A stretch of 27,802 bases of DNA from Candidatus Hydrogenedentota bacterium (GCA_007136375.1 SLHB01000122.1:1-27802); one strand, 5' to 3'. Shown: positions 1,230 through 10,407, counted from the first letter of the stretch. The notes: generated by a model not told the origin, from the sequence alone. Numbers and translations: made by a program.

Positions 1230-1739
1230 ATGCTTGGGCCCTCGCGGCTCGCGTGCGCGGCGGCGCTCGTGGCCGCTCTAACAGCGTGCGCGGCGCGTAA
1301 CGACACGAGTGGAGACTCAACGGACGTGGCGGACGGGAGCGGAGCGGCGCTGACGGAAGTGGAAGCGCCCGACGCCCTGGAGACGGAGGGGGACAACTTG
1401 GAGCCCATGGAGCTGACGGCCTTGGACGACGGCGCGGGTTACGCCGTGACGGGCCCCTGGGATTTCGAGGGGATGTTGACCACGCCGGAGACGGAGGGCG
1501 GCGCCTGGCGTTTCGCCGGCCAGTTCACGTTCCCGACGGGCGGCTACCAAGTGGGCGAACCCCGGGTGCGGATTATGAAATCCTATCCCGAGCAGGTGTC
1601 CATCGTGATCCCGGTGGTTCCCCCGCCGGATGACGCGATGGTGATTCAGGTCATTACCGAGACGCCGGTGGAGGTGGAGATTCCCGCCTCGCCCGAGGCG
1701 ACCTTCACCGCCGCCGTGGAGCGTGTGAGCACGGGTTAG
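1230..1739 (+). CDS. Lipoprotein with a PrcB-C-terminal-like (protease-complex subunit) domain
   Basis: Signal peptide ending in the lipobox LTA-C; acidic linker; then FPTGGYQV...VSIVIPVVPPPDDAMVIQVITETP, which resembles the PrcB_C pattern PTGGY...P....VTQ(A/V)IT. RBS present. Confidence 0.6.
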   Translation: MLGPSRLACAAALVAALTACAARNDTSGDSTDVADGSGAALTEVEAPDALETEGDNLEPMELTALDDGAGYAVTGPWDFEGMLTTPETEGGAWRFAGQFTFPTGGYQVGEPRVRIMKSYPEQVSIVIPVVPPPDDAMVIQVITETPVEVEIPASPEATFTAAVERVSTG

Positions 1740-1815: not shown

Positions 1816-3156
1816 ATGGCGCGGTGGGCCTTGCTGATACTTGCGGCGATGGTGGTCTCCGCCGTGTTCTGGTGGGCCGCGCTGCCGACGCGCCCCTCCG
1901 ACGAGCTCTTCGCCAAGGAGATCGCGGCGGCGCAGGCCGAGTACTTGGAAGAAGCGGACCAGCGCCGCGCCGCTATGGACAGACGGCGGCGCGCGGCGGG
2001 GTTGGACGCGGATTGGGATTGCGCCGAAGCCCTGACGGAATGGCTCGACCCGGCGCGGGAGAGCTTGCCGGACTTGGCGACGGCGTTCCTAGAGAACCGG
2101 GGCCGCCTCGCCACGGAGCCTTCCGCCGCGGAGGCGTTGTCCGGCGCCATGGGCCCGTCCATGGGCATTGCTCCGGCCCAGGACCTACGGGCCACGCTGC
2201 TGGCCTACGCGCGGACGGATCCTTTCCTGGCGCAATTCTCGGAATGGGCGGCGCTGGGCCTGTGCGCGGCGGCGTTGGACCCCGTCCGGGGCGTCTCCCT
2301 AGCGGAATGGGACGGGCTGGACCGCGTTCAAGGCGTGGCGGGGTTGCTGGCGGTGCGGGCCGTGGCCTGGGCCGAGGCGGGCTACGCCGCGGAGGCCTTC
2401 CAAGGGTTGTTCGCGGTGTATGAACTCGCCGCTGGGTTGGCGGAAGAGCCAATCTTCGCCGCCCAAGAGCACGCGTTGGCCATCCAAGCCATGGCCGACG
2501 AAGCGCTGGGCTTGGTGCTCCATGCCGCGCCGCCGCCGAAGGCGGAACGGGACAAGCTCGCGCGGCGCATGGAGGCGCGCGCCTCCGCCGATCCCCTCAT
2601 CCGCACGCTGCACGCGGAGGCCTCCTTTGCATTGCGCCACTACCCCCTCGAACAGTTGGGCCACGCCTTGGGCGAGATGTTCGCGTACGACATCTACACC
2701 TTCGCGACCCACGCCATGCCTGTTCTGCGGCAGCAGCCCTGGGAGGCCAGGCCGGCCTTGGAGGCGCTGCGGGACACGTCGAGCAGCACCGCAGTGGAAA
2801 CCCGGGGCATGCTGAACACGATCAGCGAACTTCACGCCGCACACGCGGCGCGTGAACTCATCGGCCGCCTGACGCCGATCATCCTCGCCATCGAGGCGCA
2901 CCGTCACGAGACGGGAGGTTATCCGGACCGGCTGGACGACCTGGAGGGCCCTCGGGCCGCGTTGCCCGAAGACCCCATCACGGGCGGCTCCTTGCGCTAC
3001 CTGCGCACACCGAGCGGGTACGTCATCCGCGCCGAGGCACCCCCTGGCGCCGCGATAGAGCAACCCGTTCGTTGGCGCGGCGGTCTGGCGTCTGGCGACG
3101 CCCCTTGGACAGACAGTTCCGCCGTGGACGAAGAAGCGCCCGCGCCCGCTACATAG
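1816..3156 (+). CDS. N-terminally membrane-anchored hypothetical protein with a C-terminal GspG/pseudopilin-like motif
   Basis: RBS GGAGG; N-terminal hydrophobic helix (WALLILAAMVVSAVFWW); Ala/Leu-rich helical body; C-terminal LAIEAHRHETGGYPDRLDDL...LPEDPITGGSLRY resembles the GspG C-terminal A(L/I)xxYxxxxGxYPxxLxxL..lPxDP motif. Confidence 0.7.
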   Translation: MARWALLILAAMVVSAVFWWAALPTRPSDELFAKEIAAAQAEYLEEADQRRAAMDRRRRAAGLDADWDCAEALTEWLDPARESLPDLATAFLENRGRLATEPSAAEALSGAMGPSMGIAPAQDLRATLLAYARTDPFLAQFSEWAALGLCAAALDPVRGVSLAEWDGLDRVQGVAGLLAVRAVAWAEAGYAAEAFQGLFAVYELAAGLAEEPIFAAQEHALAIQAMADEALGLVLHAAPPPKAERDKLARRMEARASADPLIRTLHAEASFALRHYPLEQLGHALGEMFAYDIYTFATHAMPVLRQQPWEARPALEALRDTSSSTAVETRGMLNTISELHAAHAARELIGRLTPIILAIEAHRHETGGYPDRLDDLEGPRAALPEDPITGGSLRYLRTPSGYVIRAEAPPGAAIEQPVRWRGGLASGDAPWTDSSAVDEEAPAPAT

Positions 3157-4591
3157 CTCCCCACTGCCCACTCTGACTGTACGCGCCGGCTTGCTCCCGG
3201 CTGCCGGCGCGCTGGTATGTCTTCGGACGCCGCTTCAGGCTGGCCTCCAACCGGGGAAAGCGCGTAAACCGGCATCCTTCCTGCTCGAAGCGCGTGATGA
3301 CATGCAGATAGAGGATCACCCGGGCGATGCGGAGTTGCCGGGGCGACGCGTAGTAGATGGTGAGGCCTTGCTCAATAGCGTGCTCCAAGGGCGCTTGCAG
3401 CGCGGCGGGCCGCTTGGCGTCTTGCTCGGACCAGGCAAAGAGGTCGATGTCTTTATCTTCCCCGTTGCCGTCATTCCGCTGCTCTTGCGCCTTCCAAGCC
3501 TTGGCCGCCTGCCGGTAGGCCTGCACAAGGGCGTCGTACCAATGGAGCACGGCGCGGTAGCCTTCGTCCTGAATGTCCACCTCAAAGTGGAGCTTGTCAA
3601 GGCCGGCCGGCGTGACTTTGTTGAGGGCGGCGCGCCGGTCGTGGTCTTCCTCGGGGATCATGCGGACCCGGGCCTTCTCGTCGGCCGCGCCGAAGTTGAA
3701 GCTCTCCAGGATGGTGTCCGGCTTGAACTTGCCCCGGGCGATGAGGCCGAGTTCGCCGAGGAGTGGTCCGGCCAGCGCGTCATGCTCCAGGCCGTCGTCC
3801 AGGCTGGGCAAGGGCGCGAAGATGTCCGCCTTCCAGTCGAAGTAGATGTCGTGGCACAAGCCGGTGAAGGCCTTGCCGGTTCCGCGGAAGCGCCCCGCCA
3901 TGGCGGCGCCGACGATATCGGCGAAGCGCTTGCGCAGACGCCAGCCGGAATGCCGGAGGATGTCGTGTTCGTGGAGGTAGCGCAGGACCAAGAGCCGGTC
4001 CAGCGCGAGCGCGGCGGCCTGCTCGCTTTGCCCGGTCTCTTCGGCCAACAGCGTGCACCACTGCCCCACCCACTCGCGGAGTTGGCGCGCCACGTAGCTG
4101 CGGGGTTGCCGGCGCAACTCGTCCAGCGCGCCCTGGCCCGCCTCGCGGCGTTGCAGCACCGGGGCGATCTCCGCTTGAAACTCCTCGAAGGAATTCGCGC
4201 TGAGGAGCAATTCCTCCGTGCGCATTTCGTAGAGGTAGGACCGGACGAGATCCGTCACGAAGGTGTAGTCGGCCTTGTGCCGGTACGCCGCGGCGGTGAG
4301 ACGCCGCGTGGCCAGGCAGAAGTCCAGCCCTTGATCGATGACCGCGCCGGGGGGATCCAAGGCGCCCGGCTTCACGAAATACAGAACGAGCGTGCGGCCG
4401 CCCGCCGTCACTTGGAAGCCCAGCGCGCCCGCCGGGCCTTCCTCGCCTTCACCCGTCAAGCAGGCGGCGTCCTTCCAGCCCAGCAACGCCATGAACTTGC
4501 GGGCGGCGCGTTCCTGGTCCGGCCGTCCCGCGCCCGCCAGCTTGTCCCACCAGGATTGGCTTAGTTTTTCCAGATCTCTTGAGGCTCCCAT
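3149..4591 (-). CDS. Hypothetical protein; degenerate (likely catalytically inactive), C-terminally truncated Type IIG/Eco57I-like restriction-modification homolog
   Basis: 480-aa intact ORF. Blocks collinear with the REase-helical-MTase N-half: FMALLGW, YFVKP, YTFVTD..YLYE, LDRLLVLRYLHEHDI, KVTPAGLDKLHFEVD, LTIYYASPRQLRIARVILYL, FPRLEASLK. The CDS is well supported; the family assignment is a manual inference. Confidence 0.6.
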   Translation of the reverse strand: MGASRDLEKLSQSWWDKLAGAGRPDQERAARKFMALLGWKDAACLTGEGEEGPAGALGFQVTAGGRTLVLYFVKPGALDPPGAVIDQGLDFCLATRRLTAAAYRHKADYTFVTDLVRSYLYEMRTEELLLSANSFEEFQAEIAPVLQRREAGQGALDELRRQPRSYVARQLREWVGQWCTLLAEETGQSEQAAALALDRLLVLRYLHEHDILRHSGWRLRKRFADIVGAAMAGRFRGTGKAFTGLCHDIYFDWKADIFAPLPSLDDGLEHDALAGPLLGELGLIARGKFKPDTILESFNFGAADEKARVRMIPEEDHDRRAALNKVTPAGLDKLHFEVDIQDEGYRAVLHWYDALVQAYRQAAKAWKAQEQRNDGNGEDKDIDLFAWSEQDAKRPAALQAPLEHAIEQGLTIYYASPRQLRIARVILYLHVITRFEQEGCRFTRFPRLEASLKRRPKTYQRAGSREQAGAYSQSGQWGAM

Positions 4592-4592
4592 G

Positions 4593-5198
4593 TCAGGCCA
4601 CGCCCTTTCCTTTGTGCACGTTGAACCCCGCCGTTGCGATATGCCGCCAGATCACGTCGTCCCGCCTCCCCAGCAAGTCCACGCCGTCCCGCAGAAACGG
4701 CGCGAGCGTGTCTGGCTGGCTCTTTAGCGTCTTGACAAACTCGTTGCTGCTCATGGTTTGCACCGTGTACGGCTCGACCTCCGTTGCTTTGGAGCGGCGG
4801 CCTGGCGCCGTGACGGCCAACGCCTGGCCCAGGCGCTCGTTGAGAAAGGCCTGGCGCACCGACTCGTCCACGGCCAAGGCGGCCCGGAGACGGTCCGCGC
4901 TGCTTCCCGTCTTCAACACCATGGCGCGGAGCTCGGCGAAGAGGGGGAAGTCCCGGTCGGGCTGATAATACGTCCGGTTCCCCTCCTGGCGCCGGTATAG
5001 GAGCGCCATGCCCGCGAGCCGATCCAATTCACGCTGGACCGCGCGGATGGCCAGGCCCGTAACGGCCTCTATCTGGCGCTGATAATAGGCGCGGCCGGGG
5101 TCCAGCATGAACAGACGGACGATGGCCGCCCGCGCCCGGGAGGCGAAGAGGTCAGTAAGCAGCTCTTTCTGATTCTTTTGTTCCGCTGAATACATCAT
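4593..5198 (-). CDS. Winged-helix DNA-binding protein fused to a degenerate minimal nucleotidyltransferase (MNT)-like domain
   Basis: LFASRARAAIVRLFMLDPGRAYYQRQIEAVTG...VQRELDRL...RRQEGNRTYY..FPLFAELRAMVLKTG is typical of wHTH-MNT fusions. The GS..DxD motif is absent. Likely start is ATG at 5198 or 5195 rather than 5219. Confidence 0.75.
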   Translation of the reverse strand: MMYSAEQKNQKELLTDLFASRARAAIVRLFMLDPGRAYYQRQIEAVTGLAIRAVQRELDRLAGMALLYRRQEGNRTYYQPDRDFPLFAELRAMVLKTGSSADRLRAALAVDESVRQAFLNERLGQALAVTAPGRRSKATEVEPYTVQTMSSNEFVKTLKSQPDTLAPFLRDGVDLLGRRDDVIWRHIATAGFNVHKGKGVA

Positions 5199-5201
5199 AG
5201 C

Positions 5202-5214
5202 TAGATCCAATCTA
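5202..5214. promoter_or_regulatory. Inverted repeat TAGAT-cca-ATCTA immediately upstream of the wHTH gene; candidate autoregulatory operator
   Basis: Perfect 5-3-5 inverted repeat 3 nt upstream of the start codon, in an AT-rich patch. Confidence 0.3.
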
Positions 5215-5570
5215 AGCATATTGGGGCAGCAATTGCAACTATCCCCAACAACTTGTGGTATGGTTCACTCGAATGTGCGTCAAGGTCCACAAACTTGCGT
5301 TCCTTCGACGCGAATTTGTGTCAAGACGACTTAGCGTCGCGTCACTCGAACCACATTCGGCATGGAATGACGCGAAAATGGGATCAAGCGCCTTTGTCAA
5401 AGGGCGGAACGACGCCGCGAACCCACGATTCCCCCCGGCGCCGCAATGGGGAATACCGCCGCCGCCGCCGTGTTTTCCCTCGTGAAAACCCTTCCGGAGC
5501 GGGCGCGCGCAGGATTCCATGAGCCCTCGAAAACGCGGCCGCACCCATACTGCCGGGGATCTGCGCAGCC

Positions 5571-8229: not shown

Positions 8230-8259
8230 GTGACGGCGCCTTTTCCCGTCTGTTATGAT
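8230..8259 (+). promoter_or_regulatory. Candidate sigma70 promoter for the M42 peptidase gene
   Basis: GTGACG (8230-8235), 18-nt spacer, TATGAT (8254-8259) preceded by the extended -10 TG (8251-8252). Confidence 0.5.
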
Positions 8260-8333
8260 GCGCGCCACGCAAGGGGCGGCGGTCGGCGCTCCCGCCCTGT
8301 TCCGCGCAATAACCCAGGCGCCAACGGAGGAGA

Positions 8334-9401
8334 ATGGATCGCATGCGGAAGGAATCCCTGGAATTCCTCAAGAAACTGGTCACGACGCCGAGTCCCTCGG
8401 GGTTCGAGGCGGATATACAGCGGGTTTGCAAGGACTATGTGGAGAAGCACGCCGATGAGGTCTACAAGGACGTTCACGGCAATCAGTTCGCGGTCCTGAA
8501 TCCCAAGGGCAAGCCGCGCATCATGCTCGCGGGCCACGTGGATGAAATCGGCCTCATGGTCAATCACATCGACGACAACGGGTTCATGTCCGTGGCGCCC
8601 ATCGGCGGCGTGGATGCGTCGATCCTGGACGGCCAACGGGTGGTGGTGCATGGAGAGGGCGGGGACGTCAGCGGCGTCATCGGCCGGCGCGCCATCCATC
8701 TCACCGATCCGGAAGACCGGGGCAAGCCCCTCAAGATGCACGAACTGTGGGTGGACATCGGCGCGAAGGACAAGGCGGATGCGCAAAAGGCCGCCGCCGT
8801 GGGCGATCCCGTCACCCTCGACGTGGGATTCACCCAGTTGCGCAATGACAACGTCTGCGCCCGCGCGCTGGACGACCGTATCGGCGCTTTCGTCGTCATC
8901 GAGGCCTTGCGTCTTCTCGCCAAGAAGAAGCCGACCTGCGCCGTCTACTGTGTCACCACGGTGCAGGAGGAGGTGGGCCTGCGCGGCGCCGCGACCGCCG
9001 CGTACAGTTGCGAACCCGACGCGGGCATCGCGGTGGACGTCAGCCACGCCACGGATCACCCGAACTGCGACAACAAGCGCTACGGCGCCACAACCCTCGG
9101 CGGCGGCCCAATTCTCGCCCGGGGCTGTAACATCAATCCTGTCGTCGCGAAAGGCCTCGCGGATGCGGCGAAGAAGGAAAAGATCCCCTATCAGATGTCC
9201 GCGGAGCCGCGGGCCACGGGCACGGACGCCAACGCGATGCAGCTCAGCCGGGGCGGCGTGGCGACGGGACTTGTGGGGATTCCGAACCGGTACATGCATT
9301 CCCCCGTGGAGATGGTGAACCTTGGCGATGTGAAGCACGCGTCCGATCTTATCGCCGCGTGGATCGCCAGTCTGAACAGCAAGGTCAGCTTCATTCCCTG
9401 A
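8334..9401 (+). CDS. M42 family metallo-aminopeptidase (TET/FrvX-like)
   Basis: SPSGFE, AGHVDEIG, ALDDRIG, VQEEVGLRGA, AVDVSHA, GTDA, RYMHSPVE metal-ligand motifs. Start at 8334 or 8343. Confidence 0.95.
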   Translation: MDRMRKESLEFLKKLVTTPSPSGFEADIQRVCKDYVEKHADEVYKDVHGNQFAVLNPKGKPRIMLAGHVDEIGLMVNHIDDNGFMSVAPIGGVDASILDGQRVVVHGEGGDVSGVIGRRAIHLTDPEDRGKPLKMHELWVDIGAKDKADAQKAAAVGDPVTLDVGFTQLRNDNVCARALDDRIGAFVVIEALRLLAKKKPTCAVYCVTTVQEEVGLRGAATAAYSCEPDAGIAVDVSHATDHPNCDNKRYGATTLGGGPILARGCNINPVVAKGLADAAKKEKIPYQMSAEPRATGTDANAMQLSRGGVATGLVGIPNRYMHSPVEMVNLGDVKHASDLIAAWIASLNSKVSFIP

Positions 9402-9426
9402 TCCATGTTCCCAGCGGAGCGGCGCT

Positions 9427-10407
9427 TCAGATCTCCACGTGGCGCCCGGTCTCGGCCGACTCCAACGCGGCCTCCACGACCTCCAGCGCGTGGACGCTCC
9501 ATTCCAAGGCGGGTTCCGGCGCGTCTCCGCCGGTGATGGCTTGGACGAAGGCGCTCGCGGGACAGCCGTCGTACCTGGGCAAGTCCGGCGCAATCTGGGC
9601 GCCCCGGGCATCATGCTGGATCAGGCCCACGCCGTGGCGGAGGTGGAGCGCGCCTTCCCCGCCGATCACGGCGAGATCCTCATGCCAGGCGGGGGCGTGG
9701 CCGGCGATGGAGATGGACCCCAGGGCCCCATTGGCGAACGTCAGGGACAGGGCCGTATTCACATCCACCGGAATGTCGAAGCGTTCGATCCGGGCGCAGA
9801 CGCTCGCCACCCTGCTGTTCACGGCCCAGGACGCGCACTCCAGGAAGCAGTTCCCGGCGTCCAAGAGCTGGCCGCCGCCGGACAGTTCCGGATCGTGCCG
9901 CCACGTGCCGCGGGTCATGTGCAGCCAATCCTGGCAGTGGATGGCGTGGATGAACTGGACCGGCCCGACGGCGCCCTGTAGCAGTTGGGCGCGCATGTAC
10001 CGGAAAGCGGGCTCATGATGGCGCGGCCGGGCCGCCATGAGGACGCGATCCTGTTCGCGGGCCTTGGCGATGAGGCGCCGCGCGCCTTCGGCGGAACAGC
10101 CCATGGGCCGCTCGCACAGGACATGGAGCCCAGCTTCCAGCGCGGCCGTCACATGTTCTTCCTGAAGCTTGGGGGGCGAAGCGACCAGGCAGGCGTCCAA
10201 CGTTTCTTCGGCGAGCATGGCGGCGTAGTCGCGGTACACGGCTACGGGTGCTTGGTCGCCGCACTCGGCGCCCAGCCGGTCCGTCGCCTCCTCGGCGGGA
10301 TCCGCCACGGCCGCCACGCGGGCCCGGCCGGTCTCCTGTATCCGCCGGCAGCGTCCGGCGGCGGCGCGCCCGGCTCCGATCACGCCCACCCGGGCCATGT
10401 CGATCAT
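9427..10407 (-). CDS. Gfo/Idh/MocA family oxidoreductase
   Basis: Real start is MIDMARVGVIGAG (ATG 10407, RBS GGGAG). Rossmann N-terminus, HVLCERP (variant of EKP), GGGQLLDAGNCFLE, ALEVVEAALESAETGRHVEI. The tracked ORF to 10878 is over-extended. Confidence 0.92.
   Translation of the reverse strand: MIDMARVGVIGAGRAAAGRCRRIQETGRARVAAVADPAEEATDRLGAECGDQAPVAVYRDYAAMLAEETLDACLVASPPKLQEEHVTAALEAGLHVLCERPMGCSAEGARRLIAKAREQDRVLMAARPRHHEPAFRYMRAQLLQGAVGPVQFIHAIHCQDWLHMTRGTWRHDPELSGGGQLLDAGNCFLECASWAVNSRVASVCARIERFDIPVDVNTALSLTFANGALGSISIAGHAPAWHEDLAVIGGEGALHLRHGVGLIQHDARGAQIAPDLPRYDGCPASAFVQAITGGDAPEPALEWSVHALEVVEAALESAETGRHVEI

Follow-up and report, generated by a model that had tools for sequence, protein, structure and literature searches.

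The window analyzed here, a stretch of 27,802 nucleotides (nts) from a Candidatus Hydrogenedentota bacterium (GCA_007136375.1 SLHB01000122.1:1-27802; all positions are counted from the first letter of the whole stretch), carries on its minus strand two adjacent genes, designated A and B. We consider it probable that this pair is a domesticated, exapted module made of dead defence parts and not a defence system, in which A is the ancient core and B was recruited later. The product of gene A corresponds to the ‘head’ of a Type IIG restriction enzyme, devoid of the nuclease residues and of the methyltransferase and specificity domains, to which is joined a C-terminal domain matching nothing known. 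A is an old, vertically inherited core gene, unlike a defence system; it is older and more widespread than B, and independent of it. The product of gene B combines a winged helix-turn-helix (wHTH) with an inactivated MNT-like domain and a conserved C-terminal tail. The features of the locus are as follows.

3149-4591, minus strand: gene A, 480 amino acids (aa) (P0001); catalytically dead Type IIG-type head and C-terminal domain without known match
4127-4591, minus strand: A residues 1-155, N-terminal helix (..LLGW) and PD-(D/E)xK-like domain, from hmmalign against Eco57I-type proteins, Foldseek and Atlas
3713-4126, minus strand: A residues 156-293, helical spacer homologous to the Type IIG / MmeI_hel connector (Atlas match MmeI_hel)
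3152-3712, minus strand: A residues 294-480, mostly helical C-terminal domain with no methyltransferase fold or motifs
4593-5198, minus strand: gene B, 201 aa (P0122); wHTH, inactivated MNT-like domain and conserved C-terminal tail
4908-5159, minus strand: B residues ~14-97, ArsR/SmtB-type wHTH, from Foldseek and PADLOC
4689-4907, minus strand: B residues ~98-170, remnant Pol-beta/MNT nucleotidyltransferase fold, deletion point at ~4821-4847
4596-4688, minus strand: B residues 171-201, family-specific conserved tail GVDLLGRRDDVIWRRIEAAGxxVxKGKGV
4589-4595, minus strand: stop/start junction TGAcATG (B stop TGA 4595-4593, single c 4592, A ATG 4591-4589)
5199-5570, minus strand: leader, lying between the divergently oriented B and molybdopterin-oxidoreductase genes, from sequence and repeats

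Searches of A against the Pfam, NCBIfam and PADLOC libraries found nothing. An AlphaFold2 model built from a 58-sequence alignment (mean pLDDT 91) gave, in Foldseek, top PDB matches to DrdV, BpuSI, PglX/BrxX and BsaXI, with modest E-values (3e-4 to 0.1); TM-scores of the structural matches were low because the alignment covers only the N-terminal part of the protein. The best match in a viral structure library was a Type IIG-like adenine methyltransferase, and a structural search of the Atlas matched the N-terminal domain to MmeI_N/HSDR_N, while a sequence search of the PDB with the A and B profiles returned nothing useful. Run against 1.8 billion representative proteins, the A profile retrieved 123 hits only, which fall into three groups: the Hydrogenedentota family itself, ~45 clusters of proteins of 430-470 aa matching over their full length, and ~25 proteins of 900-1300 aa with Eco57I, N6_Mtase and TaqI_C domains. 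The first ~320 residues of this last group match profile columns 26-293 (E 1e-11 to 1e-4). Residues ~26-293 of A are thereby homologous to the N-terminal endonuclease-type domain and spacer of the Type IIG/IIL enzymes (Eco57I, MmeI, BpuSI, DrdV) and of PglX/BrxX, and the succession of N-terminal domain and helical spacer typical of Type IIG enzymes is present. Blocks common to both are LLGW, a D after the core strands, (L)T(N/D)..R..L(F/Y)(N/D), LDRL..(I/L)RY and S..KF; the spacer of A also includes a lineage-specific basic motif, RRQPRSYVARQLREW.

The catalytic D...ExK of the PD-(D/E)xK nucleases is lost from A. When aligned by hmmalign with Eco57I-type proteins, the Type IIG signature (vD ... 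hEaKrfG) falls on G58 (4418-4420) ... Y71-F72-V73 (4373-4381), with D, E and K replaced by G58, Y71 and V73, respectively, and the family consensus at these positions is S ... H-F-V-x-P-G. This agrees with a first-pass annotation of the sequence, which had proposed that A lost its catalytic signatures. An N-terminal domain without nuclease residues is also found in PglX. A differs from the Type IIG/IIL enzymes and PglX as a whole in having no D...ExK, no N6-adenine methyltransferase (motifs I/IV) and no TaqI_C-type specificity domain, in its small size, only 480 aa, and in its unrelated helical C-terminal domain. For the gamma-class N6-adenine methyltransferase (motifs I and IV), no Eco57I, N6_Mtase or MmeI_Mtase Pfam match was obtained in A at E<=1; profile homology to Type IIG stops at column 293, and no methyltransferase similarity was detectable beyond that residue. 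Similarly, no TaqI_C-like target-recognition domain was found in its 480 aa, compared with 900-1300 aa in the homologous enzymes. The same annotation had read A as a full-length pseudo-Type IIG protein, a degenerate fusion of restriction endonuclease and methyltransferase. This description had to be abandoned, as homology stops at about residue 293 and neither profile nor fold comparison detected a remnant of the methyltransferase or target-recognition domain.

The C-terminal domain itself carries the motifs ILESFNYGxxxEKARVRMIPE, DEGYR and DLFxWS. We considered whether it could be a degenerate methyltransferase and found no support: profile homology does not extend past column 293, and no Rossmann fold is seen in the predicted secondary structure. 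An Atlas search with this domain alone (~190 aa) gave only weak scores (<=0.78) and no confident look-alike. Across Hydrogenedentota, the invariant charged or polar residues of A are D90, D114, R160, R164, E296, N299, E305, K306, R308, R310, D339 and D383. With a median isoelectric point (pI) of 5.6, A is acidic; B ranges from near neutral to basic.

The distribution of A was surveyed in 135 Hydrogenedentota species genomes, 86 of them of high quality, representing 66 genera. A is present in 130/135 genomes (83/86 of high quality; 63/66 genera), once per genome, and is missing from the two genomes outside the main order and from three others. Its maximum-likelihood tree is congruent with the GTDB families, requiring 6 label changes, the minimum possible. 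Ratios of nonsynonymous to synonymous substitution rates (dN/dS), taken from gene pairs with unsaturated synonymous divergence, were 0.016-0.071 for A and 0.106-0.119 for B. Lengths of ~477 aa (A) and ~201 aa (B) are invariant, with no stops or frameshifts in >100 orthologs. The branch leading to the A copy of the window (L001 in the tree) is long, 1.24 substitutions per site against a median of 0.22, and the GC content of the genome is far above that of most relatives; P0001 keeps 87/94 highly conserved positions.

None of the usual marks of mobile defence was observed: the distribution is not patchy, the tree gives no sign of horizontal transfer and no defence genes lie nearby. Also in this respect, as a single-copy, core and vertically inherited gene, neither patchy nor mobile and with no brx or defence genes in its vicinity, A is unlike Type IIG/IIL and PglX genes. 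In the window and 12 other genomes, no conserved flanking genes were found beyond A and B, and the contexts are housekeeping. Membership in a BREX system is not indicated either, since only the N-terminal region of A resembles PglX, the methyltransferase domain is absent and the flanks are unrelated in these same genomes.

A is retained in a second candidate phylum. Among the relatives of 430-470 aa, one clade was assigned to Candidatus Sumerlaeota by a single-protein scan; taxonomic placement covers this one clade, and others, e.g. P0278 and P0303, lie outside it. A profile of the Sumerlaeota family detected members in 66/75 Sumerlaeota genomes, essentially one copy each. Aligned by hhalign, the Hydrogenedentota and Sumerlaeota families match with a probability of 100 (E 3.8e-45, 423 columns); this is full-length homology, and the C-terminal domain is common to both. 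Only 12 positions are common to the two, mostly hydrophobic (L, W, F, G, P) plus D90, K288 and D383, and the E296/N299/E305/K306/R308/R310 motif is conserved in only 0-32% of the sister family. No B was found in the single Sumerlaeota genome searched (G135), and the contexts of A are likewise housekeeping. Two Sumerlaeota homologs, 32% identical, directly follow queH on the same strand (L056:4107-6329; L057:4222-6290); one of them also lies beside mnmA, and the pair of the window is near tilS. A link of A to tRNA modification is possible, or simply shared synteny.

Gene B derives from another family. The AlphaFold2 model (pLDDT 92) shows an N-terminal domain for which Foldseek matches the repressors HlyU, SqrR and SmtB (TM by target 0.6-0.8). 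PADLOC profile PDC-M05A matches only this N-terminal half (1e-21, over residues 20-125). The C-terminal domain matches NTP_transf_2/Polbeta folds in the Atlas, wHTH-nucleotidyltransferase fusions among them (TM 0.58-0.67). No NTP_transf_2 or Polbeta Pfam match was obtained for B, whereas intact wHTH-MNT paralogs from the same phylum give Polbeta/NTP_transf_2 matches and a full-length PDC-M05A match (7e-59). Compared with these paralogs, to which it is 24-31% identical, B keeps the wHTH, the linker helices, the first strand (..AF..; VRLAFL versus VQIAFVFGS) and the NP..T.EEF segment. In the alignment, ~21 residues holding GS...DxD (..AFVFGSIANG....SDIDLMVIG..) are deleted from B, so that nucleotidyl transfer at the ancestral site is predicted to be impossible. 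The earlier description of B as a ‘wHTH-pseudo-MNT’ protein fits both the fold matches and this deletion. B also differs from its paralogs in the extra conserved tail of 30 aa, GVDLLGRRDDVIWRRIEAAG..V.KGKGV, absent in canonical wHTH-MNT proteins, in which D174, G177, R178, R179, W184, I187 and G191 are invariant.

PDC-M05 is a candidate system of nucleotidyltransferase and HEPN proteins with a toxin-antitoxin (TA) architecture (PMC12988326). B resembles the wHTH-MNT proteins of this type (PDC-M05A; antitoxins of HEPN-MNT type VII TA systems) in its wHTH, and differs from them in its partner, the Type IIG-derived A and not a HEPN protein: B is coupled to A alone, no HEPN or PDC-M05B match was obtained for A, and the neighbours are housekeeping. 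Likewise, B resembles the ArsR/SmtB repressors in the superposition of its N-terminal domain and is distinguished from them by marginal sequence similarity (E 0.005-0.1), the added dead-enzyme domain and the fact that no metal or sulfide sensing site was identified. The modelled fold is consistent with dimeric operator binding and autoregulation. The intact paralogs are scattered in Hydrogenedentota (L048:1750-2340, minus strand; L049, L050, L051, L052, L053, L054 and L055). Upstream of the one in L048, an open reading frame (ORF) of 193 aa (2384-2965, minus strand) has no Pfam or PADLOC match, so that any HEPN-type partner of this paralog would be an unrecognised one.

B lies directly upstream of A in 39/39 loci holding both, with a junction of -4 to +5 nts. 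In the window, the annotation's two intact minus-strand ORFs, 1 nt apart at TGAcATG, were found as described, and by this close spacing of stop and start the two genes would be translationally coupled. The last codons of B (AAAGGAAAGGG) form a purine-rich stretch 10-20 nts ahead of the A start, which may serve as its ribosome-binding stretch. The open frame of B reaches 5219, where an in-frame ATG would make a protein of 208 aa; the ATG at 5198 (201 aa) is backed by the lengths of orthologs and by the database gene call. GC content of the pair (0.62-0.68) is similar to that of adjacent genes, and neither A nor B of the window contains a frameshift, again as the annotation had it. Its proposal that both proteins are full-length, coupled and repurposed, and not decaying, is sustained by co-conservation and by strong purifying selection (dN/dS 0.016-0.119).

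An obligate A-B partnership, in contrast, could not be upheld. B is present in 113/135 Hydrogenedentota genomes and is missing from the whole genera g35, g37 and g41 and from a few other genomes that retain A; together with the Sumerlaeota family, these show A without B. A motifs (the invariant polar residues) are kept in B-less lineages. Two such loci are L040 (G014) and L008 (G083), and in the former ~270 nts of leader are left at the former place of B. A of G014 has no conserved C-terminal ..RP..L..DR.. tail and a branch of 1.15, compared with 0.45 in its B-containing sister, hinting that constraints changed after the loss of B.

We propose the following course of events. A would descend from an enzyme of the Type IIG/MmeI/PglX type, of which it kept the nuclease-like domain, now without D...ExK, and the helical spacer; the methyltransferase/specificity part was lost entirely, and a helical C-terminal domain was added. 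Vertical inheritance as a single-copy core gene would then have followed, in the main Hydrogenedentota order and, without B, in Candidatus Sumerlaeota. B would have been recruited later, within Hydrogenedentota, from a wHTH-MNT protein (PDC-M05A-type, antitoxin-like) that lost its GS...DxD catalytic loop and acquired the conserved tail. The winged helix of B may bind DNA as an ArsR-like dimer, with the dead MNT domain and tail providing a contact surface for A; B could thus act as a dedicated regulator or DNA-targeting adaptor, in a stoichiometry presumably set by the tight translational coupling. A itself might serve a housekeeping process specific to the lineage, as a scaffold or binding protein without nuclease activity, and be able to work without B. 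A bolder form of this proposal, which we regard as a tentative possibility and clearly less probable, is that the pair (A alone in Sumerlaeota) is a lineage-defining housekeeping system of exapted dead defence parts, essential or near-essential in two candidate phyla, for example a chromosome- or transcription-associated complex with the restriction head as structural subunit and the gutted antitoxin as DNA-targeting or feedback partner.

Several points weigh against the proposal of an exapted module or restrict it. Direct DNA binding by A is doubtful: given its acidity and the near neutral to basic character of B, DNA contact more plausibly comes from B. Because B was lost in three genera without loss of A, it is not essential for the role of A. 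The invariant polar residues R160, R164, E296, N299, E305, K306, R308 and R310 could form an unrecognised active site. Finally, a promoter-like element conserved upstream of the operon (described below) leaves a diverged copy upstream of A in the B-less lineage L040 and is missing from the window, and therefore may be a promoter feature rather than the operator of B.

The potential active site leads to the main rival, in which A is a neo-functionalised enzyme: with the old nuclease site dead, its C-terminal domain or a new set of invariant polar residues would catalyse another reaction, on nucleic acid or another substrate, with B as transcriptional or allosteric regulator. The many charged and polar residues invariant in Hydrogenedentota speak for it, as do the very low dN/dS of A, the retention of its motifs in B-less lineages and the presence of tRNA-modification genes near several members (queH twice and mnmA in Sumerlaeota, tilS in the window). 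However, the motif from E296 to R310 is not conserved in Sumerlaeota, and the few, mostly hydrophobic positions common to the two families fit a structural role of A better than new catalysis. The C-terminal domain moreover matches no known catalytic fold, and the neighbour associations are few and may reflect chance or shared synteny. We therefore hold this explanation to be unlikely, though it is the strongest of the alternatives.

Roles in defence or addiction agree poorly with the observed distribution. One such reading, an undescribed system that is still active against phages or plasmids and happens to be fixed in the lineage, acting as sensor/scaffold or decoy, would account for the origin of both components from defence or TA families (Type IIG/BREX-like and PDC-M05A), and the acidic charge of A is compatible with a decoy or DNA mimic. 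The first-pass annotation had leaned this way, towards a defence sensor or anti-restriction decoy. But the pair is single-copy, near-universal (A in 63/66 genera), strictly vertical and in a housekeeping context in every locus examined, the opposite of the defence-island pattern; it has no conserved defence neighbours, no effector domain and, for A, no PADLOC match, and the sister-phylum homologs are likewise core and stand-alone. Active defence is thus improbable. Least probable by far is that B-A is the degenerate remnant of a TA-like addiction module or a decaying pseudogene pair. The origin of B from an antitoxin-type wHTH-MNT protein and a coupling as tight as in a TA operon would suit such a remnant, but A contains no toxin-like domain and is older and more widespread than B, and the strong purifying selection and the invariant, uninterrupted reading frames of >100 orthologs speak against it; dN/dS and distribution already contradict this reading. 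What endures of the annotation is the repurposed non-catalytic module; its defence flavour, obligate partnership, full restriction-methyltransferase protein and regulatory palindrome (see below) do not.

Although the domains of both proteins come from known superfamilies, neither the A/B family nor its pairing and core status are represented in Pfam, NCBIfam or PADLOC; Pfam and NCBIfam lack a model for the family, and literature searches found no description of it, in line with its designation by the annotation as an undescribed candidate. As an exapted module, the pair would offer a clean, well-sampled case in which parts of defence and TA systems were domesticated as core genes. The head of a restriction enzyme has been deprived of both enzymatic functions and an antitoxin-type nucleotidyltransferase of its active-site loop; strong purifying selection has preserved both throughout the history of a bacterial order, and the restriction-derived gene A is retained across two candidate phyla. 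It would flag a lineage-specific core function, and defining the family would improve the annotation of Hydrogenedentota and Sumerlaeota genomes. It also calls for caution with ‘defence’ labels given from homology alone, as the N-terminal half of B already matches PDC-M05A of PADLOC.

We then examined the region upstream of B. In 22/39 orthologous loci (among them L010, L012, L014, L021, L025, L030, L032, L034, L039, L041 and L043), the element TTGACA-N4-TGACTAC-N6-GTATACT lies 78-94 nts upstream of B, or 135 nts in two loci; it resembles a sigma-70-type promoter whose 17-nt spacer holds a conserved box. In ~400 kb of flanks, 8/9 occurrences of the core pattern were the operon site, and in three whole genomes searched the element was unique or nearly so. 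It thus appears to be a dedicated regulatory element of the operon, its tie to B being putative; a regulon was considered and rejected, as each genome has essentially a single such site. The leader of the window (5199-5570) lacks the element and contains two 18-nt direct repeats starting with CTTGAC (5267-5284 and 5308-5325) and, as the annotation had noted, a palindrome TTGGGG...CCCCAA at 5221-5248. Its presence was confirmed, its role as a regulatory site was not: the arms are of 6 nts only, leader RNA folds no better than shuffled sequences (z about -1.5) and no conservation of the palindrome was found in orthologs. Rfam gave no hits on the leader and both genes, and sigma-70 and terminator scans in the window were uninformative.

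The window sequence occurs in soda-lake and alkali-sediment metagenomes. In a metatranscriptome library from the same study, contigs extend over A, B and the junction between them; the leader is missing from these contigs and present in the DNA libraries. This is weak evidence that A and B are expressed and co-transcribed.

The genes adjacent to the pair encode an S41/tricorn-type peptidase, a 446-aa protein without assigned function, a molybdopterin oxidoreductase, TilS and HPRT. Consistent with the annotation, no HEPN, methyltransferase or mobility gene was found among the genes adjoining the pair. Elsewhere in the window, ORFs 8253-9614 (minus strand; 453 aa) and 1230-1739 (plus strand; 169 aa) gave no significant Pfam match. 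A minus-strand ORF at 2299-3171 was considered as an extension of the operon; it has no homologs, and the convergent plus-strand gene at 1816-3156, which encodes the 446-aa protein and overlaps A by 8 nts, was preferred. This protein has no Pfam match, and its C-terminal ~100 residues match several ORFs of 430-710 aa per genome in relatives (E 1e-10 to 1e-4), which suggests that it belongs to a lineage-specific multi-copy family.

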